Assembly: GCA_963769885.1 (NCBI GenBank)
Contig: CAVYNH010000007.1
Location: 64,001 to 128,000 of the forward strand
Reading direction: 5' to 3'
DNA length: 64,000 bases
DNA from: Methanobacteriota archaeon
Lineage (GTDB): Archaea; Thermoplasmatota; E2; DHVEG-1
Shown here: in pieces, positions 4,225 through 25,123 of the stretch
How positions within the stretch are numbered: position 1 is the first letter of the stretch
How the letters are laid out: each line of letters opens with the position of its first letter
Translations under genes and position numbers: made by a program
Notes under the pieces: generated by a model
The model's database searches: none
Told to the model about the DNA's origin: nothing
What the model saw: only the letters and a program-made list of their open reading frames with translations

Positions 4225-5160
4225 TTACATGACGAGGGTAATGTCAAGTTTCATTGCCAATTCTTTGTACCGATTCCGTATCGTGACCTCGGTCACCCCA
4301 GCGACGTCTGCGACCTCACGCTGGGTCCGGCGTTCTCCGCACAGTACCGAGGCGATGTACATCGAGGCTGCCGCAAGGCCGGTCGGCCCGCGTCCACTCG
4401 TCAATTCATGATTCGCGGCACGCTCAAGAATCTCCAGGGTCTTGGTTTGAACGCCGTTGCTGAGTTTGAGCACACTGCAGAACCGGGCGATGTAATCCTT
4501 TGGTATGGTCGGCATGAGCCTAAGTTCCAGCTCCCGGGAGACAAAGCGGTAGTTCCGACCGATTTCCTTGCGGGGCAACCGCGTGGCCAGGCTCACTTCA
4601 TCAAGCGTGCGGGGAACGTGGCATTGCCGGCATGCGGCATAGAGCGATGCGGCCGTGATCCCTTCGATGCTCCGGCCTCGGACAAGGTTCTTGAAGGCGG
4701 CTTTCCGGTAGATCATCGCCGCGGTTTCGCGAACGGACCGAGGAAGCCCCATCCCTGAAGAATAGCGGTCGATCTCGGTCAAGGCGAGGGCGAGATTCCT
4801 CTCTGTGGCATCGCTGATTCGGATCCGCCGCTGCCATTTTCGGAGACGATAGAGCTGGGCCCGGCTTCGTGCAGGGATGCGCCTCCCGTAGGCGTCTCGG
4901 TTGGTCCATCCGATGGTCGTGCTGAGTCCCTTGTCATGCATGGTGTAGGACATCGGGGCCCCGGTCCGAGAACGCTTCTCGCGTTGTTCGCTGTCAAACG
5001 CCCGCCATTCTGGGCCATGGTCGATGATGTCTGAATCAAGGACGAGCCCGCAATTCCCGCACACCAGTTCAGCCCGAGAGTAATCGCTTCTCAGATGTCC
5101 GCTCCCGCAATCAGGACAGCTGATGATCTCTTCTATTGCATGTTTGGTCTTTTTCTTCAA
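4225..5160 (-). CDS. tfb: Transcription initiation factor IIB (TFB), paralog 1
   Basis: CPDC/CGNC Zn ribbon, GPEWRAF, two cyclin repeats, [13 protein letters not shown]; start at TTG 5160 inferred by comparison with paralog 2. Confidence 0.95.
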
Positions 5161-5712
5161 GGCGTTTATCCTGATGCAGGTATCAATGGGCCATGCATGG
5201 TTCCCGGAGGTCTTGGATGCGTAGAAAAAAAACACAAGCATCTCACACGATTGCTATGAGAAAACCACGGTTTCTTCTCTGCCTATAAGTAATACCGGTT
5301 TCCTCCTTTATATGACTTTGTCTCTTTGGATGTGTATTGCACATGGTGTCTTGGACCCTTTCTGTAATAAAAGTCAAATACTTGGGTTGATGAAAAGCTG
5401 GGTTTGCGAGCGTCGGATGCATTGTTCACTGGCGAAGCGGCAGGATCTGGGCTGAAGGCGAGGAGAACAAGGAAACAACGTTTCACTTCCTTCTCTTTCG
5501 ACTTCAAATAAGGCAAAATGAAAAATAATTTGAGATATGAAATCAACTCCAAGTTTTTCCTTAACAACGCATCCTCAGAACCCCGTCGCCTTGCAGCGCA
5601 TACTGCATCCTGGATCCGTTTCTCTGAGCGGTTAGGCAGTGGCACTGTTTCATTTTTTACTAACAAATAAAGATGCTGACTTAACAATAACCGAGTGTGC
5701 ATCCATTCTTAT

Positions 5713-7057: not shown

Positions 7058-7091
7058 TGCTGAATTTGTGAATAAAAAAACCAATGATTAT

Positions 7092-8720: not shown

Positions 8721-8893
8721 AGGGAAGAAAGAATTTCTTTGGAGAGGGTGATGAATCCTTTCTGGCTTAATTTCTTGCTCGACGTGTAAATCTGTTTTTG
8801 ACTTTTCCTCAGATGCTGGCCTATTTCGCGAATTTCAGTCGTGCCTGAAGCAAGTTCGCTGAGGATCCGGAGCTCTTTTTAAGAAAACCGCAA
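8712..8893 (-). pseudogene. Truncated winged-HTH protein fragment
   Basis: KELRILSELASGTTEIREIGQHLRKSQKQIYTSSKKLSQKGFI; 5' end disrupted. Confidence 0.45.
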
Positions 8894-8945
8894 ATTCCGA
8901 AAATATGAGAATTACTTGTATATCTTTCTCATTTTTTCGGAAATC

Positions 8946-9075
8946 TTACGCCCGCATCGAGATACTGTCACCGAGATAGCGCTATATTCATGGACTCTTC
9001 TTCTGTTGAGGATTTTTAGGTGCGAGTTTTCGAATCGTGTTTTGGTACTTGGAAACAGCCATGGAATCTGGCAAT
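8946..9075 (-). repeat. tRNA-Arg 3'-end repeat (att-like) plus type-A arm
   Basis: TTACGCCCGCATCGAGAT matches 24885-24902 at 17/18; arm shared with 10112 and 21691. Confidence 0.85.
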
Positions 9076-9330
9076 TTAGTTACTCATGTTTTACGGTAAT
9101 CGCTGTAAAAAAGAAAAGAAAAAAAAGAGGAAGGGAGGATTAAATAGTTCTTTTGTTCTGGTGAAGAACGATATCCAAACCCCTCTCCGTTCTACGTTAT
9201 TTCAGATCTTGCTATCCTATCCATCTTCCTCCTATTTAGAGTATCTTATTTTCTTTAATCTCTGATAGGAATGTTTAAGTAGTTCCTTGTATAATACATA
9301 TACATATGCAATTGCATGAGATGATGTATT

Positions 9331-9477
9331 ATGATAAGAATGACGTTTTCAATTTCTAACAACCTGAAAAAAAAACTCGATTCCAAACCGGATGTCAATT
9401 GGCCTGAAGTCTTGAAGGAAAGACTCAAGAAGAGAGTAGAACTCTTGGAAAAACTGCATGAACAAGGAGAAATTTAA
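9331..9477 (+). CDS. RHH-type antitoxin-like protein 1 (48 aa)
   Basis: MIRMTFSISNNLKKKLDSKPDVNWPEVLKE; below ORF-track size cutoff. Confidence 0.7.
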   Translation: MIRMTFSISNNLKKKLDSKPDVNWPEVLKERLKKRVELLEKLHEQGEI

Positions 9478-9478
9478 T

Positions 9479-9781
9479 ATGGCATGCATTACAATTTCTG
9501 TTGATAAAACATTTAAAAATAGACTCCATCAATTTTCCTGGATAAATTGGTCTGAAATTGCAAGAGAAGAACTGCTGAAACGATATCTCTTTGAAAAATA
9601 CATGAAAACAGGAGAACTATCCAAAGACGAGGAACGATTCTGCGACCAGATCGATTGGCACCCTGTCGATGAACTTCCGATAAAAAAAGAATTCATTAAA
9701 AAGATAGGGGAAATTCGAAAAGGAGCATCCTCAAAACCAATGAAACCGGATCAAGTCAAGCAGTGGCTTCAGGAGCTATGA
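9479..9781 (+). CDS. RHH-type antitoxin-like protein 2
   Basis: MACITISVDKTFKNRL...INWSEIAREE; overlaps toxin start. Confidence 0.75.
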   Translation: MACITISVDKTFKNRLHQFSWINWSEIAREELLKRYLFEKYMKTGELSKDEERFCDQIDWHPVDELPIKKEFIKKIGEIRKGASSKPMKPDQVKQWLQEL

Positions 9782-10053
9782 GCTTCGCCATCATTATCTC
9801 TAATGAGTTGAAGAAGACATTGGTGACGATGAAAAGGAAGGACCAAAGGATGTTTCAAATGGTGAGTAAGAAAATAGTGCAAATTGCGTCCTCGGATTCT
9901 CTTGCCATCCAACATTACAAGAATCTACGCAGCCCGTTGAACGACTATAAACGCGTTCATATAGGAAGCTATGTCCTTCTCTTCCGAGTCCAAGCAGAGC
10001 ACATCATCTTTGAAGCACTTGAACACCACGATCAAGTCTATCAAATGAAATAG
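9778..10053 (+). CDS. RelE/ParE/YafQ-family toxin
   Basis: YKNLRSPLNDYKRVHIGSYVLLF...HHDQVY. Confidence 0.85.
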   Translation: MSFAIIISNELKKTLVTMKRKDQRMFQMVSKKIVQIASSDSLAIQHYKNLRSPLNDYKRVHIGSYVLLFRVQAEHIIFEALEHHDQVYQMK

Positions 10054-10230
10054 GGACTTTGCCCCTATGACGCCTTTGCCTTTATTTCTTTTCTTTGCTG
10101 GTTTTGATTAGGATACTGTCACCGAGATAGCGCTACATTCATGTGATCTTCTTCTGTTGGGAATTTTATGGCATGGGTTTTCGAATCGTGTTTTTGTAGT
10201 TGGAAACAGTAATGGAATCTGCCAACGAAG
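10045..10230. repeat. Inverted IS200 right end fused to type-A arm
   Basis: ATGAAATAGGGACTTTGCCCCTATGAC then GATACTGTCACCGAGATAGCGCTACATTCAT; same composite at 21622. Confidence 0.8.
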
Positions 10231-10376
10231 ACGAGTTTTAAGGAAACAGGATCCACCCATTTCATTAAATGTAATTCCTCTCTCTTAGGATTATGAATCA
10301 GGCTAATTAGTACTATATAGAGTTGACGGTACAATGTCGAAATTAATTTATAGATTGGTATCTATTGAGAGAGTAG

Positions 10377-11424
10377 ATGTTCTCTCTAGAAAAAAGGTGG
10401 GAACACAATAGAAGCATGAAGGCACCGCATACTTTTATTATGTACACACGTGTCCTGAGACTTCAAGGTGCTGCAGCAACTGCCTCCGCGGTTCTCATTG
10501 GTGCTTTACTCATGGGGCAACGAGACTTTGCCTCTCTGTTCGTTCTCTTTATTTTAGGGGTTCTCGCACATATTTTCATCTTTGTTTTCAATGAGTATGT
10601 TGATGTTCAGGTCGATGCAATATCTGCTGATCTTAAGGGGAAACCTCTTGTCAGTGGCGCGGTTTCACGACGTAATGCCCTTGTAATCGCGCTGATTGTT
10701 TTGGCATTAACGTACGTGCTCAGTACCCGTCTTTTTCTCAGAATACCCTTTGTTATTCCTTACATTAGGACTCCTCTGCGGTAGTATCTATGATTTATTT
10801 GGGAAAAAAATACTTTTTGCAGATGTTTTTATTGCAGGATCTTGTTTCTTCATTGTATTATTTGGTGCGAGTACTGTCTCTATCTCGTTTACATCCTTTG
10901 TGTATCTTGTTTCGCTTGCCTGTTTCTTCCACATTTTGTTTAACAATGCTGTTGAGGGTGGATTAAAAGATATAGATCACGATGCTCTTGCTGGTGCGAA
11001 AACAACAGCAACGCGATTACAGGTGAAGATTGTTGATGGGAAACTCGTGGTGACAAAACGGTTCGCTGCGTTCGCGTACCTCTGTAAGCTCTTTTATCTC
11101 AGTTTAGTTTTTTTGGTGAGTCTCCTCCCTGAGGTTTCCTTCTGGAATTCTACCGTATCTTTTTTAGCGCAGATATTTTTGGTCTTTCTACTCGCTGTAG
11201 TTGTTGTCACTTTGTATCGGTTTTGGCATCCCCCTGAATTTAACAGGAAGCATTTAATCAAGGTATTTGGGATACATGAGATCGCAGCATATGCCCTTGG
11301 CCCTATCGTTCTCCTTCCAGTGATAGGGATCTCTTTGACTCTGCTGCTTCTTGTTCTACCAGTAGTTTGGTTTTTCCTGGTGAACCTTTGCCTTTATGGA
11401 CATCCTCTGTATCCTCAGGTGTAA
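10377..11424 (+). CDS. UbiA-family prenyltransferase (+1 frameshift near 10727, probably an artefact)
   Basis: NEYVDVQVD and KDIDHD Asp-rich motifs, KPLVSG; two ORFs join by removing one C. Confidence 0.85.
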
Positions 11425-11521
11425 ATTCAAAAGATAGATGAAATAAGAACGGATCCCTATTTTATTAGATAGAATCTCACAAAAAATTTGTAATATTTCC
11501 GAGTTTATTAGTTATATCTTA

Positions 11522-11640
11522 TACGCCCGCATCGGGACCTAGCGCTAATTCTATAGTGCCCAACAGGAGAAAATAAACTCAAAAACCAGACGGCCTTGAT
11601 CGCCAAGACTCTACAACGACGGACAGTACATAAAACTAAC
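11522..11640 (-). repeat. tRNA-Arg 3'-end repeat plus type-B arm
   Basis: TACGCCCGCATCGGGA then CCTAGCGCTAATTCTATAGTGCCCAACAGGAG, shared with 17955. Confidence 0.85.
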
Positions 11641-11757
11641 TCATTCGTAAGGTTATTGACGGTCAGAAGTTGTCCCCGTTGGACTTTGGCGTAAACATTC
11701 AACCATGGTCCGATAATCATTCAAAATTGATTGATGGCTTGAGAATTTTACAGACAT

Positions 11758-11824
11758 CACCTAGCAAAGGATACTACGTCCTAGATCCGTTTCCGTGGCT
11801 CGGTCAAGCAGTGACACGGTTTTG
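11758..11824. repeat. R repeat 3
   Basis: ACAT|CACCTAGCAAAGGATACTACGTCCTAGATCCGTTTCC...GGTCAAGCAGTGACACGG. Confidence 0.85.
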
Positions 11825-11854
11825 AATCATATTTTTTGTGTTGAAAAGTTCCAT

Positions 11855-11878
11855 GGGTTCAAATCCCTTACCCTGCAC
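11855..11878 (+). repeat. tRNA 3'-end-like fragment (probably tRNA-Leu), copy 1
   Basis: GGGTTCAAATCCCTTACCCTGCAC resembles T-arm plus acceptor strand. Confidence 0.6.
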
Positions 11879-11930
11879 TAAAAGACAAAATCAAGCTTAT
11901 TTTTAGTAAAGAAACCCATTTTATTTGCTC

Positions 11931-12717
11931 TCAATTTATTGAATGAGCCTTGGTTTTGATTTTTTCGAGTGCCAATCCATAAATCGAGATTGTGAATAAA
12001 GGTATATGAAGAATAGCCACCCAAACTGGATATCCTGAAATTATCAAGGGGCCACTCAGGTTTAGAAGACCGAAATAGACGCCTACAATGCAGAGAAAGC
12101 GGTATGCTGGTTTGTAGATATTAGGATAGGTACAAGGTCAAAATATAAATCATTACTGGTGCTGTAAAACAGAAGGCAAGTCCATATTCAGATGTCAAGA
12201 AGAGTATTGGATTAAAGTCTGGTTGTCCAAGTATCGTCATCGGAACCCAAAATGCTAAAATCGCCAAGGGCACTGCCCAAAACCTCCACTTTTCTAGCTC
12301 CACTAACGCAAATTCGTTCTCATGCTGGAAGATTGCTGGAATCCATAAGATGCCTACAAGGAGTATCTGTAACAGGTTATTGAATATAATCACAAACCCG
12401 AACTGTTGATTGACAGTTATGTTCTGTGCAAATGCTATAAACACAAAATTGACTGTAAGATACACATAAAAATATTTCACTACTTTCGTGTTGAGTTTCC
12501 AAAGAAGAATCACAAGGACTAGAGTGGCAAGATGAAAAGCGGGCGCAAGCCAAAGATATGGCGTAAGCGATTCTCTAAGGACTAGTCCCATAAGTTCTCC
12601 TACTTGCCCGTATGTCATTGGTTTGCTCGTATATGGTGGAACAAAAAGAGGGATCAGAAAAAGAAGTAAGTAGAACCACCATTTTGACGTAATCCTTCGT
12701 AGAGCAAACGGTAGCAT
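11931..12717 (-). CDS. Multi-pass membrane protein (+1 frameshift near 12130)
   Basis: Hydrophobic ORF continues as YPNIYKPAYRFLCIVG...IN* after removing one C. Confidence 0.75.
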
Positions 12718-12768
12718 GTTGTTTTAGTATGACATATTTCGTATATAAAAGCATGAATTACTGAAATA

Positions 12769-12790
12769 GGTTCAAATCCTTCCCCTGCAC
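12769..12790 (+). repeat. tRNA 3'-end-like fragment, copy 2
   Basis: GGTTCAAATCCTTCCCCTGCAC, direct repeat of 11855. Confidence 0.6.
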
Positions 12791-12791
12791 A

Positions 12792-12889
12792 TAAAAACAT
12801 ATCCTTAGAACCCGATCACCGAGCAGTAGATACTGCTTCCGAGATCCGTTTCCCTGGGCGGTCTAGCAGTGACACGATTCTATTGTGAT
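12792..12889. repeat. R repeat 4
   Basis: AAAAACATATCCTTAGAACCCGAT|CACC...GATACTGCTTCCGAGATCCGTTTCCCTGGGCGGTCTAGCAGTGACACG. Confidence 0.85.
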
Positions 12890-12934
12890 CTACTACAATA
12901 TTTTGAATAAAAAATCAAGAGATTATTTTCTTAT

Positions 12935-13633
12935 CAGTAGCGGCCGGGAATACTGCGTGGTCTGAACCGCAGTGAAGACCCGCAGATGAGAGGCCGCTCG
13001 TCGTCTTTTTCTCACAACACTCGTTACATTTTTTGTCGCGGCGGGCAGGCGTCCGCCTGCCCCTTTACCGCGCGACAGGAGTACAAAAACTTATGGAGAG
13101 TGTATCGAGCGGCAGCTCTAAAAAGGTTGCGGGTGACACCCGCAACAACTGGGTGACCATGATGTTCCCGACACACAAAAGGTACCGGAACTTCCGAAAA
13201 CAAAGCCACATCGACACCTGCACCCAGGCGTTCCACGACCTGGAACGCCTTGGGTTCGAGTTCGGCGAATTCGGATTCGCCGAAACCCATGTACATCTCC
13301 AGGTCAACGTTCCCAAGCGGTACTCCATTGAAACCGCTGAGATTATTCTCAAGTCTTACACCTCCCGGAGAATGTTCCAGGCTCACCCCGGGTTCCACAA
13401 ACGCTACCCCCGCGGGGGATTCTGGAGCGGGTACGAGCACCATGAATCCACCGGATTGACCAGCCTTGATGAATCCTCAGCCTACCTGCGCGATCAGCAA
13501 CGACATCACAACATGACTATTATCGACGACCGACAACAACGCCTGACCGCCGAGTGAGATACGGCAATGCCCAAGAGGGCTTGCCGAGGAACGAAGGCGG
13601 AACGGGGTCATAGGGGCGCAGCCCCTATTTCAT
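12935..13633 (+). mobile_element. IS200 element copy 3
   Basis: Near-identical to copy 1; inserted in the 3' end of the Zn-finger gene. Confidence 0.95.
13093..13557 (+). CDS. tnpA: Y1 HUH transposase TnpA
   Basis: Same motifs as copy 1. Confidence 0.95.
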   Translation: MESVSSGSSKKVAGDTRNNWVTMMFPTHKRYRNFRKQSHIDTCTQAFHDLERLGFEFGEFGFAETHVHLQVNVPKRYSIETAEIILKSYTSRRMFQAHPGFHKRYPRGGFWSGYEHHESTGLTSLDESSAYLRDQQRHHNMTIIDDRQQRLTAE

Positions 13634-13936
13634 TCTTGGATCGTTACACTCTGGACAATTAACATTTCCAGTACCATCGCATTCAGGGCAATCTTCGATT
13701 CTAGTACCATCACAGATTGGGCACTCTCTCTTTCCTCCACCACCGCAAGCGGAGCAAATTTTAGGTCTATCACCGTTTGGGTTATCATATGGATCCTCTC
13801 CAGTACCTTTGCAAATTATACAATCAGTCAATCCAGTACCATTACAATCAATACATTCTTCTTTTCCAGAACCGCCACATTTTGGACACACTATTGTTCC
13901 AACACCATCACAACATGAACACTTTTTTTCTGTCAT
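13625..13936 (-). CDS. DnaJ-type CxxCxGxG zinc-finger protein
   Basis: Multiple CxxCxGxG repeats; last codons supplied by the IS. Confidence 0.8.
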   Translation of the reverse strand: MTEKKCSCCDGVGTIVCPKCGGSGKEECIDCNGTGLTDCIICKGTGEDPYDNPNGDRPKICSACGGGGKRECPICDGTRIEDCPECDGTGNVNCPECNDPRMK

Positions 13937-13944
13937 AATATGTA

Positions 13945-14319
13945 CTATTTCACAACGAGTTTTTTCACTAATTCCATTACTCTGTTGTGTCGAGTTTCCT
14001 CGATTTCTAAAATACTTTTTTTCAACCAATTCCGCCAATCTTTTTTATCTTTCCATAAATGCAGAAAAACAATGGGAATATCGTTCCGTTTGTATATCTC
14101 CTCCCGATATACATAATCGAATTTATCAGATCCACAAACCTCTAAATACAAATTTAATGCAGGAAGGTAAAAATCAGGTATCCACACCCTCGGGCGTTTC
14201 TTTTCATCATAAAGGAAAACAGGCTGTTGATAATACCAATCCAAACCCATTTCATTCAAATAACCGGCGACTACAATCTCGCTTTTGTGCATGTCGTTGT
14301 AAAATTCCTTTCCTGGCAT
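13945..14319 (-). CDS. PD-(D/E)XK-superfamily endonuclease-like protein
   Basis: SE...YL...IPDFYLP...YLEVCG motif. Confidence 0.7.
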   Translation of the reverse strand: MPGKEFYNDMHKSEIVVAGYLNEMGLDWYYQQPVFLYDEKKRPRVWIPDFYLPALNLYLEVCGSDKFDYVYREEIYKRNDIPIVFLHLWKDKKDWRNWLKKSILEIEETRHNRVMELVKKLVVK

Positions 14320-14456
14320 TTATTTCTCTTCTCCTTATTATAAGTGATAAAATGTGGATTATTAACTCTTTGGGAGGTCTTGGATTTGGGCAATAAACAA
14401 ACACATGATTATTTAGTCCATGATTCAAATTATTTCTCAATACTTTTTATTCCTGC

Positions 14457-14493
14457 CCCATTTCCATGGATCGGTCAAGCAGTGACACGTTTT
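14457..14493. repeat. R repeat 5 (3' half)
   Basis: CCATTTCCATGGATCGGTCAAGCAGTGACACGTTTT. Confidence 0.75.
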
Positions 14494-14552
14494 GTAACTC
14501 ATGATTTATGTGCGAAATCAAATGATAAAAAAAAGGGAGATGGATAGGACGT

Positions 14553-16349
14553 CTACCCTCCATCGACAAGTTCGAGCTCCCACTGCGCATTCCCACCCAT
14601 GACCATATCCTTGGTGATCCAACATTCATTCAGGAATGCATGACCATTCGTGAATTTACATGCGGCGAGGAACTCGATCTGATCGGCAAACAACCGGGAC
14701 GTGAGGATCACCCTCACATTATGCATATTACAGATAATCCCATCATAAATGAACTCCACACCCGGTCCCCTCGATCCGTTTACATACGAGTAATTCTCAA
14801 TAGTCACCCATTCCTTCGTTGGCTGAATCCGTTGAGGGAAGAAATCCAAAAAGAACAATGCCCGATCTCGCCATTCCTGTTTTACTTTGAAATCAACGTT
14901 ATAAGATAAATTCATGATTCTGTAGGTGCATACAAAGGTGACGCTCGCTTTCCCGAGTCCATGCACTGGCCGTATCTGGATTGTCGCATTCTCCCCGGGG
15001 CCTAAGGTGCCGATGGTTCCATTTTTCAATTTTGGAGAGAACAGATTTGCTGTTGCATTCATTACCCACGAGATGTTTTCCGCTGTCCCATTCCCTCTAT
15101 TCGTCAACTCGACGGAAAGGCTGCCCAGACCGCCTTTGATGTTGATGAGATCAAGGATTGGTAGGTTTTGTTGTGCAGTAGTGGACCCAAAACAATACAC
15201 CTTCCCATCACCGGATCCTACGTAGACTTTTCCGTTGGCAACCGCAGGAGAGGACGACACATAATTGTCCGTGGTGTAGTTCCAGATGAGTCCGCCGGTC
15301 GAAGCATCCAGACAATACACCTTATTATCAGGATCATTGGATCCTATGTAGACTTTTCCGTCGGCAACCGCAGGAGAAGACGACACATAAGAGCCTGTAG
15401 TGTAGTTCCAGATGAATCCGCCGGTCAAAGCATCCAGACAACACACATTCCAACTATATAATCCCACGTAGACTTTTCCGCCAGCAACCGCAGGAGAAGA
15501 GTACACTATATCACTGTTGGTGCAACATGCCCAGATGAATCCGCCGGTCGTCGCATTCAAACAATACACAAACCCATTATTTGATCCCACGTAGACTTTC
15601 CCAGTGGCAACCGCAGGAGAAGATTCCACCCAAGAGTTTATGGGGTAGCTCCAGATGAGTCCGCCGGTCGAAGCATCCAGACAAAGCACCTCTAACCAAA
15701 ATCCGATGTAGACTTTTCCGTCAGCAACCGCAGGGGAAGAAGTTACCCAATAGCCTGTGGTGTAGTTCCAGATGAGTCCGCCGGTCGACGCATCCAGACA
15801 ATACACAGTCCCATCCCAGGATCCTACGTAGACTTTTCCGTCAGCAACCGCAGGAGAAGAACGCACTTCATCACCGGTGGTGAAGTTCCAGATGAATCCG
15901 CCGGTCGTCGCATTCAAACAATACACATTCGCATCATCGCATCCGACATAGACTTTCCCGTCAGCAACCGCAGGAGAAGATTTCACCCCACGGCCTGTGA
16001 TGTAGCTCCAGATGAGTCCGCCGGTCGGCGCATCCAGACAATACACAGTCCCATCATATGATCCTATGTAGACTTTTCCGTCGGCAACCGCAGGAGAAGA
16101 AAGCACTTCATCACCGGTGGTGTAGCTCCAAAGACTATTATTTGTATCTGGCCCAAGAGATGTTGAATAGCGAGAATGACTCAGGTCATGCCCAAACATC
16201 GGCCACCAATCAGTATCAAGTGGAGCAGGTCGATGCTCGTTCAGTTGAGGTGTATCATTCTTTTGACGTATCTCTCCAGTGATACTCGGGAGACCAACGG
16301 TCGTCATCAACAGCATACACACAAACATACCAAGTATCTTTTTTTTCAT
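14553..16349 (-). CDS. Secreted PQQ-like (BamB-type) beta-propeller protein
   Basis: Signal peptide, WPMFGHD, eight SSPAVAxGKVYxG repeats. Confidence 0.9.
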   Translation of the reverse strand: MKKKILGMFVCMLLMTTVGLPSITGEIRQKNDTPQLNEHRPAPLDTDWWPMFGHDLSHSRYSTSLGPDTNNSLWSYTTGDEVLSSPAVADGKVYIGSYDGTVYCLDAPTGGLIWSYITGRGVKSSPAVADGKVYVGCDDANVYCLNATTGGFIWNFTTGDEVRSSPAVADGKVYVGSWDGTVYCLDASTGGLIWNYTTGYWVTSSPAVADGKVYIGFWLEVLCLDASTGGLIWSYPINSWVESSPAVATGKVYVGSNNGFVYCLNATTGGFIWACCTNSDIVYSSPAVAGGKVYVGLYSWNVCCLDALTGGFIWNYTTGSYVSSSPAVADGKVYIGSNDPDNKVYCLDASTGGLIWNYTTDNYVSSSPAVANGKVYVGSGDGKVYCFGSTTAQQNLPILDLINIKGGLGSLSVELTNRGNGTAENISWVMNATANLFSPKLKNGTIGTLGPGENATIQIRPVHGLGKASVTFVCTYRIMNLSYNVDFKVKQEWRDRALFFLDFFPQRIQPTKEWVTIENYSYVNGSRGPGVEFIYDGIICNMHNVRVILTSRLFADQIEFLAACKFTNGHAFLNECWITKDMVMGGNAQWELELVDGG

Positions 16350-16399
16350 GTTCCTTTCACTCCCCAAAATACAAACTTTGTAAGAGTTGATATCCTCTG

Positions 16400-16490
16400 G
16401 ATTCATTTAAATGTTTTCAGGCAATAAAATCTGCAATAAAGGAATGAATGCTTGTATTACTTCTTTAAAAACATATTCTTAGAATCTCAT
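16400..16490 (-). promoter_or_regulatory. Shared ~90-bp upstream region ending in the 27-bp motif, without hairpin
   Basis: Similar to 19891-19982; ends CTTTAAAAACATATTCTTAGAATCTCAT. Confidence 0.65.
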
Positions 16491-16596
16491 GTTTTGTGTA
16501 AATCGACGATAAAAAGATGGGATTTTTAGTACCCCAGTAGGTGTCGTAGAATTGGGAACGCATGTGGGAACAAAAAAAAGAAAAGAGGTTGGAGTA

Positions 16597-17589
16597 TTAG
16601 GTTACTCCAAGAACGTAAAACAGAAGAATTTTCCCTGTCGCTGTCTTTTCTTTATCAGATACTCTTGCGGTAATGCTGATAGGACCAAGTCCAAGGAATA
16701 GCCCTGTTGAGACTGTTTTTGGTTCTCCCATTGGGATGTCAATGGTCCCATTCGCTGTTGTATTTACTAGTCCAAGGATGCCGCCTTTCACTTGAAGCTG
16801 CCATGCAACACCAGTGGCATCTGCATCCCCGATGTTCGTGATGACTGCTTTCACTCCAATGCCTCCGGTGATGTTAATCTGATAATCGGGTTTTGGTGTA
16901 TAGGTCAGGTTGAAGGCAAGATTGTGAGCTAGGCTTGCACCATTTTGTAACGCATTGAGGTTACCTTGTGGAGATGTCATCCATAAAAACGAGCTGAGAT
17001 TTTGCGAAGCATTGCTTTGTATTGAAAGCCAACCATTTGTTAAATACACACTTGGAATAGTTGCTTCGAAATAGTACATGGGCCATCCATTATATAGCAA
17101 TCCTGTGTTTGTGTAGGTTGGTACTACATTATAAAATGGTGATGGTGGAACCACTGCACCTGGTGCACCAGCATTATTTTGGTAGAATATGATATCGAAT
17201 GTCATTCCATCTGGAACGCCTTGATACCATCCAGAATTCCAGATCCAGGTTAGTCCCCACCAGTGCACATCATCAATTGTCACATTATTTATACCCCAGA
17301 AGTCTTCTTGACATAGCCATGCCAAATTTTTCGCGGATGTATAGGCAGCCCAAGATTCATTTGGTAGATACGGCATCTGAGAAAATATTACATTTCCTCC
17401 TGACGTCGGCTGAATAATTTTTCCTGATGGTTGTAGATTACTGTTTATTCCCATAGAAGTTATTCCATTATTCGTCATAGACGCGACTGCGGGAATAGCA
17501 GTAGCTATCATCAGCATGCATACAAATATTCCAATTAGTTTTTTTTCCTCCTTCAATTTACTACTACAAACCAGGCTTGTCTTTCTCAT
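16597..17589 (-). CDS. Secreted protein
   Basis: IGIFVCMLMIA signal peptide; C-terminal GGIGV...GKILLFYV domain; start uncertain. Confidence 0.8.
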   Translation of the reverse strand: MRKTSLVCSSKLKEEKKLIGIFVCMLMIATAIPAVASMTNNGITSMGINSNLQPSGKIIQPTSGGNVIFSQMPYLPNESWAAYTSAKNLAWLCQEDFWGINNVTIDDVHWWGLTWIWNSGWYQGVPDGMTFDIIFYQNNAGAPGAVVPPSPFYNVVPTYTNTGLLYNGWPMYYFEATIPSVYLTNGWLSIQSNASQNLSSFLWMTSPQGNLNALQNGASLAHNLAFNLTYTPKPDYQINITGGIGVKAVITNIGDADATGVAWQLQVKGGILGLVNTTANGTIDIPMGEPKTVSTGLFLGLGPISITARVSDKEKTATGKILLFYVLGVT

Positions 17590-17676
17590 TCTTTTCCGTA
17601 TAAAAAGCCTGTTCCTCCTTAGCTAGTGCTATTAGTTATCATTATTTAAATGTTTGGAATAGAAAAAAATTCTTCT

Positions 17677-17761
17677 TTTTAAAAACATATCCTTAGAAAC
17701 CTATTACAAAATAGGAGATATTGCATCCTAGATTCGCTTCCCTTGGCGGTCAAGCACACGC
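17677..17761. repeat. R repeat 6
   Basis: TTTAAAAACATATCCTTAGAAACCTAT...GATATTGCATCCTAGATTCGCTTCCCTTGGCGGTCAAGCA. Confidence 0.85.
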
Positions 17762-17954
17762 ATCAATCCTTCTGAGGATTGCACACAGACCATGCAGAGC
17801 CACAATCCCCCTTGGTTGGTTGGGCATATGCGTACCAAGAAGAAGATAACGCGTCCTCGTTTTTTATCATCAATGTTAATAATTATACATGAAAAAAGAG
17901 ACGGTGGTTCACGGTCTGGAGGTGGAGGTTGGCGATGGAAAAGGAGCGTTTTTT

Positions 17955-18068
17955 CGTCCGCATCGGGACCTGGCGCTAATTCTATAGTGCCCAACAGGAG
18001 AAAACACCCTCAAAAACCAGACGGCCATGACCGTCAGAACTCTACAACGACCGGCACTACATAATACT
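17955..18068 (-). repeat. tRNA-Arg 3'-end repeat plus type-B arm
   Basis: CGTCCGCATCGGGA then CCTGGCGCTAATTCTATAGTGCCCAACAGGAG. Confidence 0.85.
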
Positions 18069-18148
18069 ATCGCTCACAACTATTCCTATTGTGAGAACCA
18101 GCCTATTTTTACCTAATACCTTTTGCATCTTGCTTTTCCCCCTTAAAC

Positions 18149-19855
18149 TTATATCAATCTATTGCAAAGAGCAATAATAAATCGTAAGCCAATCAGTCCG
18201 TGATACTCCTTTGAGATCGTGACCCTCTCCCCATGAAGATAGGTGATGAAACTGAAGGGGATGAATGTCACTACTCTGGTTTTCACCGCCTCAAACGCCG
18301 TGTACTTTCCTTGACTGGAGAGGTTGGTGATCTTGCCGAAGATGAACACTGGCTGGAACTTTTCAACCGTAATGTTCTGAGTGATACTATCTTCTGCGCC
18401 AGCATTGTCTCTCACGGTCAACGTGACATTGTATGTCCCCGAAGCTAGATAGTCATGCGTCACGATTTCTCCTATTCCTGGAGTGCCATCGCCGAAATTC
18501 CAAACCCAAGAAGAGATATTCCCATCAGGATCATAGGAGGATGATGCATTAAAGGTTACAGAAAGATTTTCAGCAGAAAAGGTGAAATTTGCTATCGGCG
18601 GTTGATTTTCACTTTTTATTTTTATCAACTAGACATCCCTTTCTCCCAATCCATATGATTTTGTGTACCCTGCAATTAGATACCCTTTATCTATGGTCTG
18701 TATTACTGACCATCCTAAATCCTCATTTGGTCCTCCTAAGGTTTCATTCCATAGTTCATCACCCATAGCATCAGTTTTTATCAACCATACATCACTACTA
18801 CCTTTACCATAGGATTCCGTATATCCTGTGATAATATATCCACCATCCAGGGCCTGTCGAACAGAATATGCACCATCATTCAGAACCCCGCCAAAGGTTT
18901 TATTCCATAGCATATTCCCGTTTGCGTCTGTTTTGATTAGCCAAGCATCGTATGAACCTGCACCAAATGAGTTTGTATATCCTGCAATAATATATCCTCC
19001 ATCGGTTGTCTGCTGACCCGATAGTGCTAATTCATCGTTTATTCCTCCAAAGGTTTTACTCCACTGTAAACTCCCATTGCTATCAGTTTTAATAAGCCAC
19101 ATATCAAGGGGTCCAGCACCAAAACCGGTAAATCCAACAATAATGTACCCGCCATCAGCGGTCCGATGAACTGAACGTGCTTGTTCATTGTCTGCTGGTC
19201 CTCCAAAGGTTCTAAACCACTGCTCATTTCCATTAGCATCTGTTTTTAGAAGCAAAACATCAGCACCACCAGCACTGTTCCAATTGGTCCATCCTGCGAT
19301 AATATAACCACCATCTATGGTTTGTTCACCACACTCTGCTGTATCCCAAAGAACCCCCCTCCACCAAATCTTATCCCATTGTGTTATACCATTACCATCT
19401 GTTTTAATCAACAGAACACCAGCAGGACCTACAGGAGTCACAAAAGTGTTCCCTATAATGATATATCCTCCATCGGTTGTCTGCTGAACCGCCCATGCTT
19501 CATCCATGTTTGCCCATCCGAAGGTTTTATTCCACTGTTCAACCCCGTTAGAATCTATTTTTAGGAGAAAAACATCAAAATCACCAGCACCAAACGAGAG
19601 AGTTTTTCCTGTGGCGATATACCCTCCATCTGATGTCTGTTGTACGGAATATGCCGAATCATCGCTTACTCCACCCCAGATAATGTTCCATTCCGCTATG
19701 GGGCCATCTAAAGGCACTGCTGTTTGAGTAGTAAAAGAGCTGAAAACCCCTCTATTTTTCGCCCTAATATCACTAACACTTGATACGACACTCGCTCCCA
19801 CCATTAAAACGATAATTCCACAAACCACGCCCTTGTTCACCCAACTCGTTTGCAT
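18149..19855 (-). pseudogene. Secreted beta-propeller (QQTxDGGYII repeats) plus PKD domain, in-frame TAG at 18629
   Basis: DV*LIK where other repeats read DVWLIK; PKD domain (WNFGDG) follows in frame. Confidence 0.8.
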
Positions 19856-19890
19856 GAAAACCGATTCCTCCTTGGCAGTTGTTATCCTAT

Positions 19891-19982
19891 AGATTCATTT
19901 AAATGTTTTCAGACGATAAAATCTGCAACAAAGGGACGAACTCTTATATTACTATTTTAAAAACATATTCTTAGAAACCAAT
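19891..19982 (-). promoter_or_regulatory. Shared upstream region with the 27-bp motif, without hairpin
   Basis: Ends TTTAAAAACATATTCTTAGAAACCAAT. Confidence 0.65.
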
Positions 19983-20011
19983 GTATTATGTTAATCGATA
20001 ACTGTACTGAA

Positions 20012-20115
20012 ATGAAATAAGGGCTTTGCCCGTATATCTTGTTTCGCCCTCGTTCCTTACATCTACGAGTCTTACGCTGTCGCTTCAGATCGCGTAATAT
20101 TCCCCGCCACTATTG
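20012..20115 (-). mobile_element. 104-bp MITE derived from the IS200 element
   Basis: Minus strand reads left end CAATAGTGGCGGGGAATA...AGATG joined to right end AGGAACGAGGGCG...CCCTTATTTCAT. Confidence 0.85.
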
Positions 20116-20235
20116 ATATAAAATAACTGGATGAAAAAAGTTTGAGTTTGAAAAGTTATTGGGATAATAATTTAAATTATGATGATATTAGAAAAATCAT
20201 CAAAGTATCCTTACAAAATTTAAAAGAGGAATAAA

Positions 20236-21615
20236 ATGAATTCAACGGAAGAACAAGACCTTGTTAAGGTATTAGGACAACTGATTTCAAAGATAAAAAA
20301 GGAGATATTCGATGTTCGTTCCAAGGGGATGATAAAGCCAGAAGAAGAATTATACTATCGTTGGAAGATAGATAAATTTCAGTATACGAAGAATGGTGTG
20401 ACGGAATCCTCCGCTCATGCAGAACCTATCATGAAAAAATCTTGGTGGAGGGCTGCTCTAATGATTGAGGAATCTATCAAAAAATCTCATGAATATTTTC
20501 TTGCTGTAGAGGTTTTAAGTAAAATTTTTCATGGAAGAAATACAATAACTCATGACCTCGATTGTTTATTAAGAAAGGTAATCTCATTGTATTTAGAAGA
20601 AACAGCATTTAATGAAACGTATTTTGATGTTCTAATTTCAAATTTTTTAAAAGAGATTAAAGAGGAACCATTAAGATATATGGCAGAAGTCGAACTCAAC
20701 GGAATAGTACTTATTCCAGAGAAGATTGAATATAAAATTGGAGATACAGATGTCGCCCTACGTCAAACTAAAATTGAAGATCTTGAAAAGGAATTTCCTG
20801 CCAATAGGATAGCTGGCCAACCTTTCTTAAGAACGCCTTCGGCAATTCTTAATTTGGAGTTTCTTGGACAAGGAGACAATGAATTACAAATAAAAATCTT
20901 GCAGACAATTGCAGTGCTTCGACTCTTCAAAGTTGGAAGCGTGAAAACCCTCTCATACTGTATGCATTCAGACTCCATCACAAATCTTATGGCCTCTACG
21001 ATTCATACTGCCGTAGATTCAGAAAGAGCTTTAGAAATAAGCCAAATCATAAATGAAGATGAACAAAAATTGAAAAGATTTTGGCAGATAATGATTAAAG
21101 CTCTGCCATCTAATTTTTACACGTTTGAAGATATAAAGATAGATTATATCACCATTGCGTACAAACGTTATTGCGATGCGTTATTGCAAAATGGTTCTAT
21201 AGAACGAAGGATCGCCAATGCAGTGATGGGTCTAGAGAGTCTTTTTCTGAAAGGTGGGGAAATCCAGGAGTTACTTTACCGCCTGAGTATAAGGGTCTCC
21301 AAAATATTCAATTATTTAGAATATGATTATTGCAAAGTAAAAGAGGTAGTAGAAGAAGCCTACAAGGTGAGGAATCTTTTTGTTCACGGCAGCTATTTGT
21401 CGTACAATGAAAAAAAGAAATTGAATAGCAAATTTGGCGATGCTAGAAAGTTGTTACTGTCACTGCTCGACTATTTACGGATATCTATACTGGTCATGAT
21501 ATTAGTCAAAATGGAGAAGGAAGAATTTCTCGATTTAATCGATGATAGCTTAGTTGACAAAGGGAAAGACAATCAATTAAATAATATCCTCAATACCGCT
21601 AGAAATGTTATCTAA
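20236..21615 (+). CDS. HEPN-domain protein (ApeA/Apea-like C-terminus)
   Basis: GLESLF...ELLYRLSIRV...AYKVRNLFVHG (RxxxxH). Confidence 0.75.
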   Translation: MNSTEEQDLVKVLGQLISKIKKEIFDVRSKGMIKPEEELYYRWKIDKFQYTKNGVTESSAHAEPIMKKSWWRAALMIEESIKKSHEYFLAVEVLSKIFHGRNTITHDLDCLLRKVISLYLEETAFNETYFDVLISNFLKEIKEEPLRYMAEVELNGIVLIPEKIEYKIGDTDVALRQTKIEDLEKEFPANRIAGQPFLRTPSAILNLEFLGQGDNELQIKILQTIAVLRLFKVGSVKTLSYCMHSDSITNLMASTIHTAVDSERALEISQIINEDEQKLKRFWQIMIKALPSNFYTFEDIKIDYITIAYKRYCDALLQNGSIERRIANAVMGLESLFLKGGEIQELLYRLSIRVSKIFNYLEYDYCKVKEVVEEAYKVRNLFVHGSYLSYNEKKKLNSKFGDARKLLLSLLDYLRISILVMILVKMEKEEFLDLIDDSLVDKGKDNQLNNILNTARNVI

Positions 21616-21621
21616 GTAACA

Positions 21622-21812
21622 ATGAAATAGGGGCTTTGCCCCTATCACCCCATTCCGCCTTTATACCTTTCCTCTGCTGGTCCTTCTCGGGATACTGTCA
21701 CCGAGATAGCGCTACATTCATGGACTCTTCTTCTGTTGTGGATTTTTAGGTGTGGATTTTCGAATCGTGTTTTTGTACTATGAAACAGCCAATGAATCTG
21801 TCAACGAAGATT
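21622..21812. repeat. Inverted IS200 right end fused to type-A arm
   Basis: ATGAAATAGGGGCTTTGCCCCTATCACCCCATTCCGCCTT then TCGGGATACTGTCACCGAGATAGCGC. Confidence 0.85.
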
Positions 21813-21915
21813 TGATAACAGAAAAGGCCTAGTTCATAATTCTACCAGGAGAGAACACGTAGCATAAAAATGGGAATTATGAATCAAGCCCAGACAAAAA
21901 GAAAGAAAAAGAGAT

Positions 21916-21972
21916 TTACTTCTTTTTCTTTGTTGTTTTCTTCTTCGTTGCTTTTTTTGTTTTTGTAGCCAT
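21916..21972 (-). CDS. 18-aa lysine-rich micropeptide
   Basis: MATKTKKATKKKTTKKKK with GAGGAG RBS. Confidence 0.5.
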   Translation of the reverse strand: MATKTKKATKKKTTKKKK

Positions 21973-22087
21973 GATTTTTTTCATCTCCTCTTCTAAACTT
22001 ATGAATGGAGAGATTGATTAAATACTTTGTTCAATTATTTGTTAAAATTTCTATGAAAATAGCCAACAAAAAGGATATGGGGCAATA

Positions 22088-22468
22088 TTATCTATTTTTG
22101 ATGATATTTTTAAGTGCCGATATATCATTTTTAATGCTTTTAACTTCTTTTAATTTTTCCTGTTCGAAGGCTTTTAATATTTCAGATAAATCCGTGGTGG
22201 TTTTATAGATATGAACTGGTCTGCCTTTCCCCTCCTTTTTAAGATCCCGCTTTTTTACCCATCCTCTTCTGCGTAGTTCCTGCATCGCTATGCTCACCTC
22301 AGGTTGACGCATATCTGTCCCCTGTTCAACATCAGCAAATTTATATTCATCAAATCGTGAAGCGTATAATAACGTTTTAGCAAGATTTTTCGGCATCCCT
22401 AACCTAACGAATAATTGAATAGCTTTACCATCATCGGTGTCTAACATATACACATTTTTTTGTTTCAT
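22088..22468 (-). CDS. Archaeal winged-HTH transcriptional regulator
   Basis: MRQPEVSIAMQELRRRGWV...GKGRPVHIY. Confidence 0.85.
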   Translation of the reverse strand: MKQKNVYMLDTDDGKAIQLFVRLGMPKNLAKTLLYASRFDEYKFADVEQGTDMRQPEVSIAMQELRRRGWVKKRDLKKEGKGRPVHIYKTTTDLSEILKAFEQEKLKEVKSIKNDISALKNIIKNR

Positions 22469-22684
22469 ATTTTCCACCTCCTCATATTTCATACCATATA
22501 ACATTTAATCACTTATAAGACCAGCCATCAATTGAAAACAAGGAACCATTCATATACAAAGATGCGAAAAAACAGATTCCACAGCCAGCATACTATGAGA
22601 GTATCATTTTAATAGAAATACTTGTTCTTTGTTTTGCCACCTAGAAACTGTGACACTTCACTATTTAACGGAAAGTGATACTAT

Positions 22685-23236
22685 ATGATAGAAATAAAAG
22701 TACAAAATATTGTAGCATCTACATCTTTTGCAGATAAGTTAGATCTTGATGTGATAGCACAATCATTGAAAGAAGCTGAATATGAGCCAGAGCAGTTTCC
22801 TGGGCTCGTGTATCGGTTGAGTAGTCCGAAAACCGCTACCCTTCTATTTAGAAGTGGGAAGGCGAACTGTACTGGTGCAAAGAATATTGAAGACGTCAAA
22901 ACCACTATTAATATCATTGCGGAAAAACTGAAGATGCTGGGTGTTGAGGTCTATAAAGACTTTGGGATCGTCATTCAGAATATTGTAGCCACAGCTGATC
23001 TTGGGGGAGATCTTAATCTTAGCGAAGTAGCTATATCTCTTGGTTTAGAAAATGTGGAATATGAACCTGAGCAGTTCCCCGGACTGGTCTATAGGATAAA
23101 AGAACCTAGGGTAGCTATGCTTTTGTTCGGTTCTGGCAAAATAGTCTGTGCAGGTGCAAGAAAGATGGAAGATGTGTCATTAGCAGTTGATAAATTATCA
23201 AAAGAGCTCACGTCATTGGGGCTTCTCCATAAGTAA
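22685..23236 (+). CDS. tbp: TATA-box-binding protein
   Basis: Two NIVA...YEPEQFPGLVYR...F.SGK repeats. Confidence 0.97.
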   Translation: MIEIKVQNIVASTSFADKLDLDVIAQSLKEAEYEPEQFPGLVYRLSSPKTATLLFRSGKANCTGAKNIEDVKTTINIIAEKLKMLGVEVYKDFGIVIQNIVATADLGGDLNLSEVAISLGLENVEYEPEQFPGLVYRIKEPRVAMLLFGSGKIVCAGARKMEDVSLAVDKLSKELTSLGLLHK

Positions 23237-23382
23237 AACCTCTCTCGTAATATATGGGGCAACGAAAAAAACCAATCTGTTAACGTGAGAGACGTTCTTT
23301 TCCATAAGAAAATCCTCAAAACTCCTACGAACGAGTATTTATATTACTCAACTGATAAGTTAGAGAATATCAGGGATTTGTT

Positions 23383-24319
23383 TTGGTTAAAAAAGAAAAA
23401 CAGAAAATAGAAGAAATCGTTCAATGCCCTGAATGTGGGAGTACCCATCTCAGTAAAGATTACTCTCGGGCGGAATTAGTTTGTAGAAATTGCGGACTTA
23501 TTCTTGATGAGGATATCATTGACCATGGCCCAGAATGGCGTGCATTTGATAGCGAACAGCGGGAAAAACGAGCTCGAACTGGAGCACCAATGACGTACAC
23601 CATTCATGATAAAGGACTCAGTACCGATGATAGGATGGAAAAACAGAGATTCCTATGGGAAGTCAATTCCAACGAGAAATAGAGCACAAATCTATCGTTT
23701 GAGAAAATGGGCACGGCGCATTCGGATTAGCAATTCAACAGAGAGAAACCTTGCTATTGCATTTTCTGAGCTTGACAGAATGGCATCAGGCATGGGCCTC
23801 CCAAGAACGGTAAGAGAGACCGCTGCTATGATTTATAGAAAAGCAGCATTGAAAAAATTGGTCCGTGGTAGAAGCATAGAAGGTGTTACCACCGCAGCAT
23901 TGTATGCAGCATGCCGGCAGTGCCATGTGCCACGTACACTTGATGAAATAAGTAACATAGCACATATATCCAGGAAAGAGATCGGAAGGACCTACAGATA
24001 TGTCTCTCGTGAATTAGGATTAAAATTGTTGCCGACGTCACCAGAGGATTATATTTCAAGGTTCTGCAGTGAACTGAAATGTAGTGGCGATGTACGAGCG
24101 AAGACCTTGGAGATCTTACAAGAAGCTGCACACCGAGAACTTACTAGTGGACGTGGCCCAACTGGTATGGCAGCAGCCTCTCTTTATATTGCATCGGTAC
24201 TTTGTGGTGAACGGAGAACACAACACGAGGTAGCAGAAGTCGCAGGCGTCACCGAGGTTACTATTCGAAATCGCTACAAGGAACTCACAAATAAACTAGA
24301 TATAGGCATTGCCCTGTAA
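23383..24319 (+). CDS. tfb: TFB paralog 2 (+1 frameshift near 23625, probably an artefact)
   Basis: Zn ribbon and GPEWRAF in the first ORF, cyclin repeats in the second; HDKGLSTMIGW restored by removing one C. Confidence 0.93.
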
Positions 24320-24338
24320 GTTTCATCGTTTGCCCTAT

Positions 24339-24668
24339 TTATTCTTCTTTTTTAGTTGTTAAAATTATTTCTATTGAAGACACATTGGAGATTCTGCCTT
24401 CTTCATTGGTAACACTTTCAGTACCGATTTTTATTTCTTTAATTTTTGCGTCTTTGATAAATCTGTTTCTCACGATTTCTGCAGCATCTACCGCTGTACT
24501 AATCGCCCTGCCTCTCGCTTTAATAATAACCTCATCCGAACCACTAGTGTTAAATTGTGTTACTATTGCAAGCACATAGCTCATCGGAGGTTTGTGTCCA
24601 ACATAGATTACGTTTTCATCTGGTCTTCTTTTTTCAGCTGTTCCCGCTTCTGTTGTTTCTTCTACCAT
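24339..24668 (-). CDS. albA: DNA/RNA-binding protein Alba
   Basis: [14 protein letters not shown]...[12 protein letters not shown]...VSSIEI. Confidence 0.95.
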
Positions 24669-24710
24669 AATTTTTTCCCGCTCAAACCTACAATTTAATA
24701 ACATCTCATT

Positions 24711-24785
24711 CTTTAATAACATACCCTGAGAAACCCATCACATAGCAGGGAATACTGCGTCCTAGGCCCGTTTCCGCGGCTCCGT
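24711..24785. repeat. R repeat 7
   Basis: CTTTAATAACATACCCTGAGAAACCCAT|CACATAGCAGGGAATACTGCGTCCTAGGCCCGTTTCC. Confidence 0.8.
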
Positions 24786-24819
24786 TTTCAACAAAAAAGG
24801 ATTAATCATGATTCTACAT

Positions 24820-24864
24820 GTCTACACCACAGTTCGAACCACGCAGTATTCCTAGCCGCTATTG
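24820..24864 (-). mobile_element. Isolated IS200 left end
   Basis: Minus strand TTAT|CAATAGCGGCTAGGAATACTGCGTGGTTCGAAC. Confidence 0.8.
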
Positions 24865-24887
24865 ATAAAAATGTCACACTAGATTTA

Positions 24888-24961
24888 CGCCCGCATCGGG
24901 ATTCGAACCCGAGTCTTAGGCTCCGCAGGCCCATAGGATGTCCAAGCTACCCCATGCGGGC
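24888..24961 (-). tRNA. tRNA-Arg(GCG)
   Basis: GCCCGCA/TGCGGGC acceptor stem, CTGCGGA anticodon loop, GGTTCGAATCC T-arm. Confidence 0.95.
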
Positions 24962-25123
24962 AAGACGCACCCTTCGCAGCCGATTTTAGCGTCAAGTCAG
25001 GGACCTTTCTTGACAAATCGGTGACGGAGAGTTTTCTGTGCAGTAATCATATATCATATTATAAGCCTTGGGAGGTCTCTCGCAGACTTCGTTCTGCTCG
25101 GCACGAACGCTTCGAACAACCCC

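Follow-up and report, generated by a model that had tools for sequence, protein, structure and literature searches.

A recently transferred set of alba, tfb, tbp and regulator genes beside a tRNA-Arg gene of a Thermoplasmatota archaeon

Here we describe an extra, foreign set of basal-transcription and chromatin genes, comprising alba, tfb, tbp and a winged helix-turn-helix (wHTH) regulator gene, in the genome of a Thermoplasmatota archaeon. The set lies in a 64,000-nt window (positions 64001-128000 of contig C7) of a metagenome-assembled genome (MAG) of 2.09 Mb in 7 contigs, referred to as G000. It occupies window positions 21622-24864, the tRNA-proximal 3.2 kb of a low-GC island that runs from ~7000 to 24886 and adjoins the 3′ end of a tRNA-Arg(GCG) gene. 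Comparison with a congeneric MAG, G001, supports a recent transfer of the set, and the mobility of the ~2.86-kb block that carries it is well supported. While a preliminary description of the stretch had considered transposition between two IS200 ends, we hold it somewhat better than an even bet (a probability of roughly 55%) that the block is an integrase-less unit bounded by attachment (att) sites, which carries a lineage-typical paralog cassette and to which IS200 debris was added later. The coordinates of all features are collected in Table 1.

Gene identities were established by profile searches against Pfam and NCBIfam, which confirmed the four genes named in the preliminary description; the lysine (K)-rich open reading frame (ORF) of 22 aa that it also named is present, and is found only in the three closest cassettes, where its changes preserve K. 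The cassette TBP scores 199 bits, above the gathering score, and contains the two TBP repeats at full length, and the cassette Alba reaches 134.6 bits against a cut-off of 88. The wHTH protein matches the model of the MreA family at 114 bits (cut-off 100), over model positions 3-110 of 110; a sequence search of the PDB with this protein found nothing. The tfb gene retains every domain expected of TFB/TFIIB, but in G000 it is not contained in one open frame: relative to the intact 313-aa gene of G001, an extra C at 23624/5 splits it into two frames. This 1-nt insertion, which the preliminary description had missed, could be genuine or due to an assembly error, whereas programmed frameshifting was rejected because the G001 gene is intact and colinear. 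With tfb frameshifted, the cassette set would be decaying or incomplete in G000.

Indeed, these genes stand beside the host's own copies. G000 contains 3 TBP, 4 TFB and 4-5 Alba genes, and the core TBP, TFB, Alba and wHTH copies have a host-like GC content of 54-63%, versus 35-45% for the module genes; the tbp and alba genes of the module are thus not the only ones in the genome. The reported AT-richness of the module relative to core genes was likewise borne out, as the block has a GC content of 38%, 17 points under that of the genome (55%), and the tRNA-Arg island as a whole one of 35-45%. The second, GC-richer TFB that had been noted at 4225 is indeed similar to the module TFB and has a same-locus ortholog in G001. 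In phylogenetic trees, the module TBP groups with its G001 counterpart among extra solo TBPs, apart from the core clade, and the module Alba falls within a clade of cassette-linked Albas, away from the core Alba of G000. Identity between the module TFB and the main TFB is 78-82% for each genome in the order, and these near-equal distances identify the module TFB as an old paralog line; they also rule out that it is a recent copy of G000's own gene. Two further loci with paralogs were observed elsewhere in this genome. At G000:C6:157836-158936, a divergent TBP (~33% identity) stands in tandem with a canonical TBP, a pair that most of the genomes searched in the order have kept, with a stop codon in the divergent copy in some of them. 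Contig C1 opens with a low-GC, 9.7-kb inverted duplication (G000:C1:1-19446, 98.9% identity) with a cassette-type alba inside, which is possibly a long-read assembly artefact or a real palindrome; the two Alba copies in it may be a single gene.

The evidence for recent transfer comes from the comparison of G000 with G001. The shared block is 97% identical between the two genomes, intergenic DNA included, whereas identity is 74-79% in the flanking syntenic core genes (30 kb) and 76.5% at the core TBP locus. Synonymous divergence (pS) within the block is 0.04-0.16, and the ratio of nonsynonymous to synonymous divergence (pN/pS) is 0.1-0.37 for TBP, TFB and Alba, i.e., these genes are under purifying selection. 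The MreA-like regulator shows 13 nonsynonymous and 3 synonymous differences, a pN/pS of ~1. In a comparison of 108 genomes from the family, the copies next in similarity (84-92% nucleotide identity) belong to another genus, g45, and lie in loci with a GC content of 38-40%; compared with the cassettes of other genera and of metagenomes, the block is 82-92% identical. In lower-GC lineages, the GC content of the cassette approximates that of its flanks. Judged by this pattern of identity and composition, the block is a recent acquisition of this genus (55% GC), with a low-GC relative as the probable source. G000 contains it in a single copy, and although the islands of G000 and G001 are flanked by the same core genes, from the tRNA-Arg gene to the TFB locus, the position of the block within the island differs between them. 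High-identity sharing between the two islands is limited to the block and one 356-nt piece, so that the tRNA-Arg island combines a foreign composition with a content that varies among close relatives. Of the proposal that the module is a mobile initiation kit, the recent transfer therefore stands, while the completeness of the kit in G000 does not, given the frameshifted tfb.

We then considered the borders of the block. On the alba side it ends at ~24735, where a G000-specific foldback starts, and on the opposite side similarity fades through a repeat of ~190 nt (repeat A); limits at ~21892 and ~24732 reappear in metagenome contigs. In both G000 and G001, the end of the block consists of the same repeat A, followed by a degenerate fragment of the tRNA-Arg 3′ end. 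Repeat A has three copies in G000 and two in G001, where two direct copies bracket the block. The tRNA-like remnants that adjoin it read ATCCCGAGAAGGAC at the block of G000, ATCCCGATACGGACG in G001 and ATCTCGATGCGGGCGTAA at the copy at 8946 in G000; agreement with the tRNA end is 16/17 at 8946 and 15/17 in G001. On its other side, the stretch with the block adjoins the tRNA-Arg gene in G000. Matches to the 3′ end of this gene with up to 2 mismatches number three in the window (the tRNA gene itself, 8946 and 11521), against 0.07 expected, a significant excess. The fragments and the conserved arms joined to them, repeat A or the 100-nt repeat D12, resemble the scars of serial integration. In G001, the DNA right behind the tRNA-Arg gene matches positions 8054-8172 of the G000 window, i.e., the DNA past the last scar.

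Repeats A and D12, as well as a third repeat, D7, are confined to ~5500-24800 of the window, the island and its near flank, and we could therefore rule out that they are genome-wide miniature inverted-repeat transposable elements, every copy being in or beside the island. The D7 copies (77-90 nt) are all on one strand, just upstream of minus-strand genes that include those for the core TFB and Usp, and the right part of D7 is similar to the IS200 left end (GGAATACTGCGT). As a candidate for an empty site, a weak likeness seen by eye between the G001 flank after TTAT and the G000 flank after the right end was discarded, as BLAST did not recover it. An Rfam scan of window positions 1-30000 returned the tRNA only.

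To place the block among its relatives, we searched the regulator protein against genomes and metagenome contigs, which yielded 160 loci, including some in Thermoplasmatota/Thermoplasmatales MAGs such as SG8-52-3 and SM1-50. About 65 of the 160 show linkage of the regulator to Alba, TBP and/or TFB, the combinations being Alba-TFB-TBP-regulator, Alba-TBP-regulator, Alba-TFB-regulator, Alba-regulator and TBP-regulator. Some of these relatives abut tRNA genes (Ser, Gly, Pro, Arg). A scan of viral contigs with the wHTH protein found nothing, and a paper on Thermoprofundales genomics makes no mention of TBP, TFB, Alba or transposases (PMC6461988). G000 and G001 are thus holders of a transferred copy of a mostly chromosomal cassette family.

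The two IS200-like ends that were reported to enclose the module are real, in that both are homologous to the ends of resident IS200 elements and lie on the minus strand. Four intact copies are present in the window (572-1271, 5713-6406, 12935-13634 and 41021-41720), of which three fall in its first 14 kb, one within the island and two just outside. Following a TTAT target, each starts with CAGTAGCGGCCGGGAATACTGCG and ends with ATAGGGGCGCAGCCCCTATTTCATT, a hairpin and then TTTCATT. Y1_Tnp has 12 matches in the genome, among them at least 8 complete IS200 copies, so that a cognate TnpA is available in trans. As in all intact copies, TTAT stands 5′ of the left-end relic, and the right-end relic, on the same strand and downstream of it, has kept a perfect 8-bp hairpin (ATAGGGGC-AAA-GCCCCTAT) and ends in TTTCATT at 21621. 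The subterminal hairpin of the left end, however, is destroyed, which had gone unnoticed in the preliminary description: the fold of the relic has an energy of -2.6 kcal/mol (z +1.3, with 187 of 200 shuffles as good), versus -17.7 kcal/mol (z -3.7) for the nested hairpin of an intact left end. The relic is part of the foldback (-24 kcal/mol, z -3.8) that fills the gap between the block and TTAT.

The caution that the ends are degenerate and their pairing possibly coincidental proved well placed, as solo relics are frequent in the island. On the minus strand of these 18 kb, right ends are found at 10044, 20011 and 21621 and left ends at 20119 and 24868; the right-end relic and repeat A recur as a unit at 10044, without a cognate left end, and contig C4 has further solo IS200 ends. 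One pair (20011-20119, minus strand) forms an element of ~109 nt, resembling palindrome-associated transposable elements (PATEs), that consists of a degenerate left end and a right end only. With such a mini element and solo ends nearby, co-oriented left and right ends a few kilobases apart are not surprising, and the bracketing of the module by IS200 ends is statistically unremarkable. At the borders of the G001 copy and of the other related cassettes, no IS200 ends were found. In one metagenome contig (L141:1-207, Ga0315277_10055538), a right end of the same IS200 family, 90% identical, lies 125 nt upstream of the alba gene of a four-gene cassette, which suggests that IS200 targets the spot upstream of alba repeatedly.

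Table 1. Features of the cassette, its borders and the tRNA-Arg island, in window coordinates.
Feature	Position	Strand	Remarks
Shared block	21880..24735	.	
K-rich micro-ORF, 22 aa	21916..21984	-	MKKIMATKTKKATKKKTTKKKK
wHTH regulator, MreA-family, TrmB-like, sensor-less	22088..22504	-	NF053756
tbp paralog	22685..23236	+	PF00352, 7e-60; intact, 183 aa
tfb paralog	23383..24319	+	PF08271 and PF00382; Zn ribbon and two cyclin repeats
alba, cassette-type paralog	24339..24671	-	PF01918, TIGR00285; 35% GC
Repeat A, arm common to several island units	21694..21830	-	Other G000 copies 8964-9080, 10088-10303
Degenerate tRNA-Arg 3′ remnant	21680..21693	-	ATCCCGAGAAGGAC; where other repeat A copies have a clear tRNA end
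IS200 right-end relic	21621..21661	-	Last ~40-50 nt homologous; abuts stop codon of 459-aa ORF
Foldback, 133 bp	24736..24866	.	Left-end relic and inverted left-end-like arm (right part of D7)
IS200 left-end relic	24812..24868	-	~55 nt homologous; TTAT target at 24865-24868; subterminal hairpin lost
tRNA-Arg(GCG)	24887..24962	-	ARAGORN, Rfam; 3′ end ATCCCGATGCGGGCG = att core of island
tRNA-Arg 3′ end fragment	8946-8963		Joined to repeat A arm
tRNA-Arg 3′ end fragment	11521-11538		Joined to D12 repeat (11539-11638)
tRNA-Arg 3′ end fragment, more degenerate	17952-17969		Joined to D12 repeat (17970-18069)
D7 copies	5562-5650, 6953-7043, 11756-11824, 12792-12880, 17680-17756, 24714-24803		Partial copies 7406, 14458
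Core TFB paralog	4225..5241	-	58% GC; 75% protein identity to module TFB

Several explanations of how the block reached its place were weighed against each other. The preliminary description had suggested a possible non-autonomous cargo transposon. On this reading, a 3.2-kb IS200/IS605 element would have its working ends at 24868 (left) and 21621 (right), and the TnpA of the resident copies would act on it in trans by single-strand peel-and-paste transposition, with an excision joint formed by the TTTCATT of the right end and the CAATAGCGG of the left end. The strand, order and homology of the two relics, the TTAT target, the intact TnpA-encoding copies and the mini element all speak for it, as does the exact coincidence of this TTAT with the point downstream of the tRNA gene where G000 and G001 cease to be homologous. 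Nonetheless, we consider this reading improbable, since the left-end hairpin is lost and the left-end relic pairs within the foldback with an adjacent arm, a closer partner than the right end at 3.2 kb; neither relic is part of the block common to G001 and the metagenome cassettes; the G001 copy has no IS ends; the element is present in a single genomic copy; and a right-end relic with repeat A occurs at 10044 on its own. The metagenome contig in which a right end, and not a left end, abuts alba fits an insertion preference and not a composite element. The IS200 relics are thus not supported as the mobiliser of the cassette and are, on their sequence and placement, probably secondary debris of an IS200 family that is very active in the island. 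Still less probable is vertical inheritance of a paralog cluster within the genus, with selection or gene conversion as the cause of its low GC content and high conservation. Both species do carry the block between the same tRNA-Arg gene and TFB locus, and related cassettes occur elsewhere in conserved housekeeping contexts, but the high identity extends over intergenic DNA and synonymous sites while the neighboring genes have diverged, the core paralogs match the genome in GC content where the block does not, and the position of the block within the island differs between the two species. We give just as little credit to an assembly or binning artefact, i.e., a low-GC stretch foreign to the organism: G000 and G001 are both MAGs, and contig C1 of G000 starts with the near-perfect, artefact-like inverted duplication described above, but two independent assemblies both place the block inside a long contig, between stretches of syntenic core genes.

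In the reading that we favor, the block would be a paralog cassette typical of its lineage, Thermoplasmatota related to MBG-D-type MAGs. Within a series of integration scars that lies at tRNA-Arg(GCG) and lacks an integrase, it would form the unit closest to the tRNA gene; one of its borders would be the tRNA 3′ end, the other repeat A with a decayed copy of that end. As a non-autonomous element with flanking att sequences, such a unit would have inserted into the att site of the tRNA gene through site-specific recombination provided in trans; recombination between repeat A copies would be an alternative route. The cassette would then supply an alternative TBP/TFB pair and two chromatin or regulatory proteins; we infer the recombination mechanism, as well as any effect on promoter use. 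A number of observations weigh against this reading. The distal att remnant in G000 shares only 10 of its 14 positions with the tRNA end and is convincing only through its alignment with the other repeat A copies. The G001 block is 5.5 kb away from the tRNA gene and distal to the original tRNA flank, and because of this position, simple serial integration needs rearrangements to fit both genomes. Many relatives of the cassette are located in housekeeping neighborhoods of conserved synteny, next to genes for an M24 peptidase, SHMT, dCMP deaminase, peroxiredoxin, HtrA and a pyridine-nucleotide disulphide oxidoreductase, which indicates that the cassette family is mostly chromosomal and not an element. 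Integrase PF00589 had no match in C7:64000-90000, which includes the island, and tblastn searches with the genome's six integrases found none near the 160 related loci and none in the G001 contig. Finally, the tfb frameshift may be an assembly error. In plain homologous recombination, a relative's DNA would have been added to the island or substituted for part of it, using shared stretches such as the repeat A copies, the region upstream of alba and the tRNA and TFB flanks; no site-specific or transposition machinery would be involved, and the tRNA-like remnants would be older, unrelated scars. This is a serious rival, even if we judge it unlikely on balance: it accounts for the shared core flanks, the sharing of only the block and 356 nt, the differing block positions, the repeat A copies that bracket the block in G001 and the lack of a recombinase in the island and at the 160 related loci. 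However, in both genomes the block ends at the junction of repeat A and a tRNA remnant, and the boundary at ~24735 reappears in unrelated metagenome contigs, a recurrence that suggests a discrete unit over arbitrary crossover points. As a tentative extension of the reading that we favor, for which we would claim only a modest chance, the tRNA-Arg island could be an integron-like accretion array of small integrase-less cassettes, each ending in a conserved arm (repeat A or D12) and a tRNA-end core; Alba-TFB-TBP-MreA would be one exchangeable unit, moving an alternative initiation and chromatin set between genera of sediment Thermoplasmatota, and IS200 would exploit the same hairpin-rich junctions.

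At tRNA-gene hotspots, integrative elements accrete in tandem, and integrase-less remnants flanked by att sites are found, as for the cis-mobilisable elements related to streptococcal integrative and conjugative elements and for integrated elements that target tRNA genes in archaea. The island resembles such hotspots in that it adjoins a tRNA 3′ end and has direct repeats of that end at successive internal borders, and also in its foreign composition, its variation in content between species and its units without integrase. It differs in that no integrase was seen nearby, the distal repeat is strongly decayed and G001 calls for extra rearrangements. Alternative promoter programmes are the role generally proposed for additional TBP and TFB copies in archaea, which have mostly been studied in haloarchaea. 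In Halobacterium sp. NRC-1, plasmids pNRC100 and pNRC200 carry extra TBP/TFB paralogs (PMC2121645), TFB expansions have been described (PMC3261711), and alternative TBP-TFB pairings have been proposed (PMC2121645, PMC3261711). Here too, extra general transcription factor genes are found on accessory, IS-rich, mobile DNA beside core copies, but in a compact 2.9-kb cassette that also contains Alba and an MreA-type regulator, within a chromosomal tRNA-linked island of a Thermoplasmatota MAG instead of a megaplasmid; moreover, its tfb is broken in G000, and the system is known from its sequence.

PATE-like non-autonomous derivatives of IS200/IS605 elements and the single-strand transposition of IS608 have been described (PMC3597680, PMC7290912, PMC10055086). 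The relic ends share with these derivatives the homology to a resident IS200, the TTAT 5′ of the left end, the intact right-end hairpin and a cognate TnpA in the genome. Unlike them, they have lost the left-end hairpin, form a single copy and lie outside the block, whose G001 copy does without them, and a 3.2-kb cargo of four genes would be unusual for the family. MreA of Methanosarcina acetivorans is a sensor-less protein of the TrmB family that has been compared with TrmBL2, a chromatin protein of Thermococcales (PMC3419521). The wHTH protein is likewise a small, sensor-less TrmB-family protein that passes the MreA model, but this match is at the level of the family; its gene is present in multiple copies, with recurrent linkage to alba, tbp and tfb, and its pN/pS ratio approaches 1 between G000 and G001. 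In the cassette, TBP and TFB are combined with two chromatin or regulatory proteins. It is found repeatedly in a sediment lineage that is uncultured and abundant worldwide, and its sequence is direct evidence of a recent transfer between genera. If it works as a unit, basal transcription specificity would be horizontally exchangeable like an accessory trait. It also illustrates that look-alikes of IS ends beside a cargo can mislead; hairpin integrity and a near-identical copy settled this case.

The remainder of the island contains several other genes. Searches of its ORFs against PHROGs and PADLOC returned no viral or defence hallmark, and weak nuclease-like matches for 13945-14319. A ParE-type toxin gene and an upstream partner ORF (9458-10053, plus strand) are flanked by two repeat A copies, and the stop codon of the toxin gene falls within the IS200 right-end relic at 10044. 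A gene for a UbiA-family prenyltransferase (10377-11424, plus strand) is contained in two overlapping ORFs and is probably an island pseudogene. The 459-aa ORF next to the block (20236-21615, plus strand), whose stop codon is 5 nt from the IS200 right-end relic, has no family match in Pfam, NCBIfam, PHROGs or PADLOC; it contains an R-x4-H motif (RNLFVH) reminiscent of HEPN. In the island of G001, a gene for a 1226-aa clostripain (C11) protein with InlB B-repeat and PKD domains (L032:6264-9944) is placed between the tRNA gene and the cassette.

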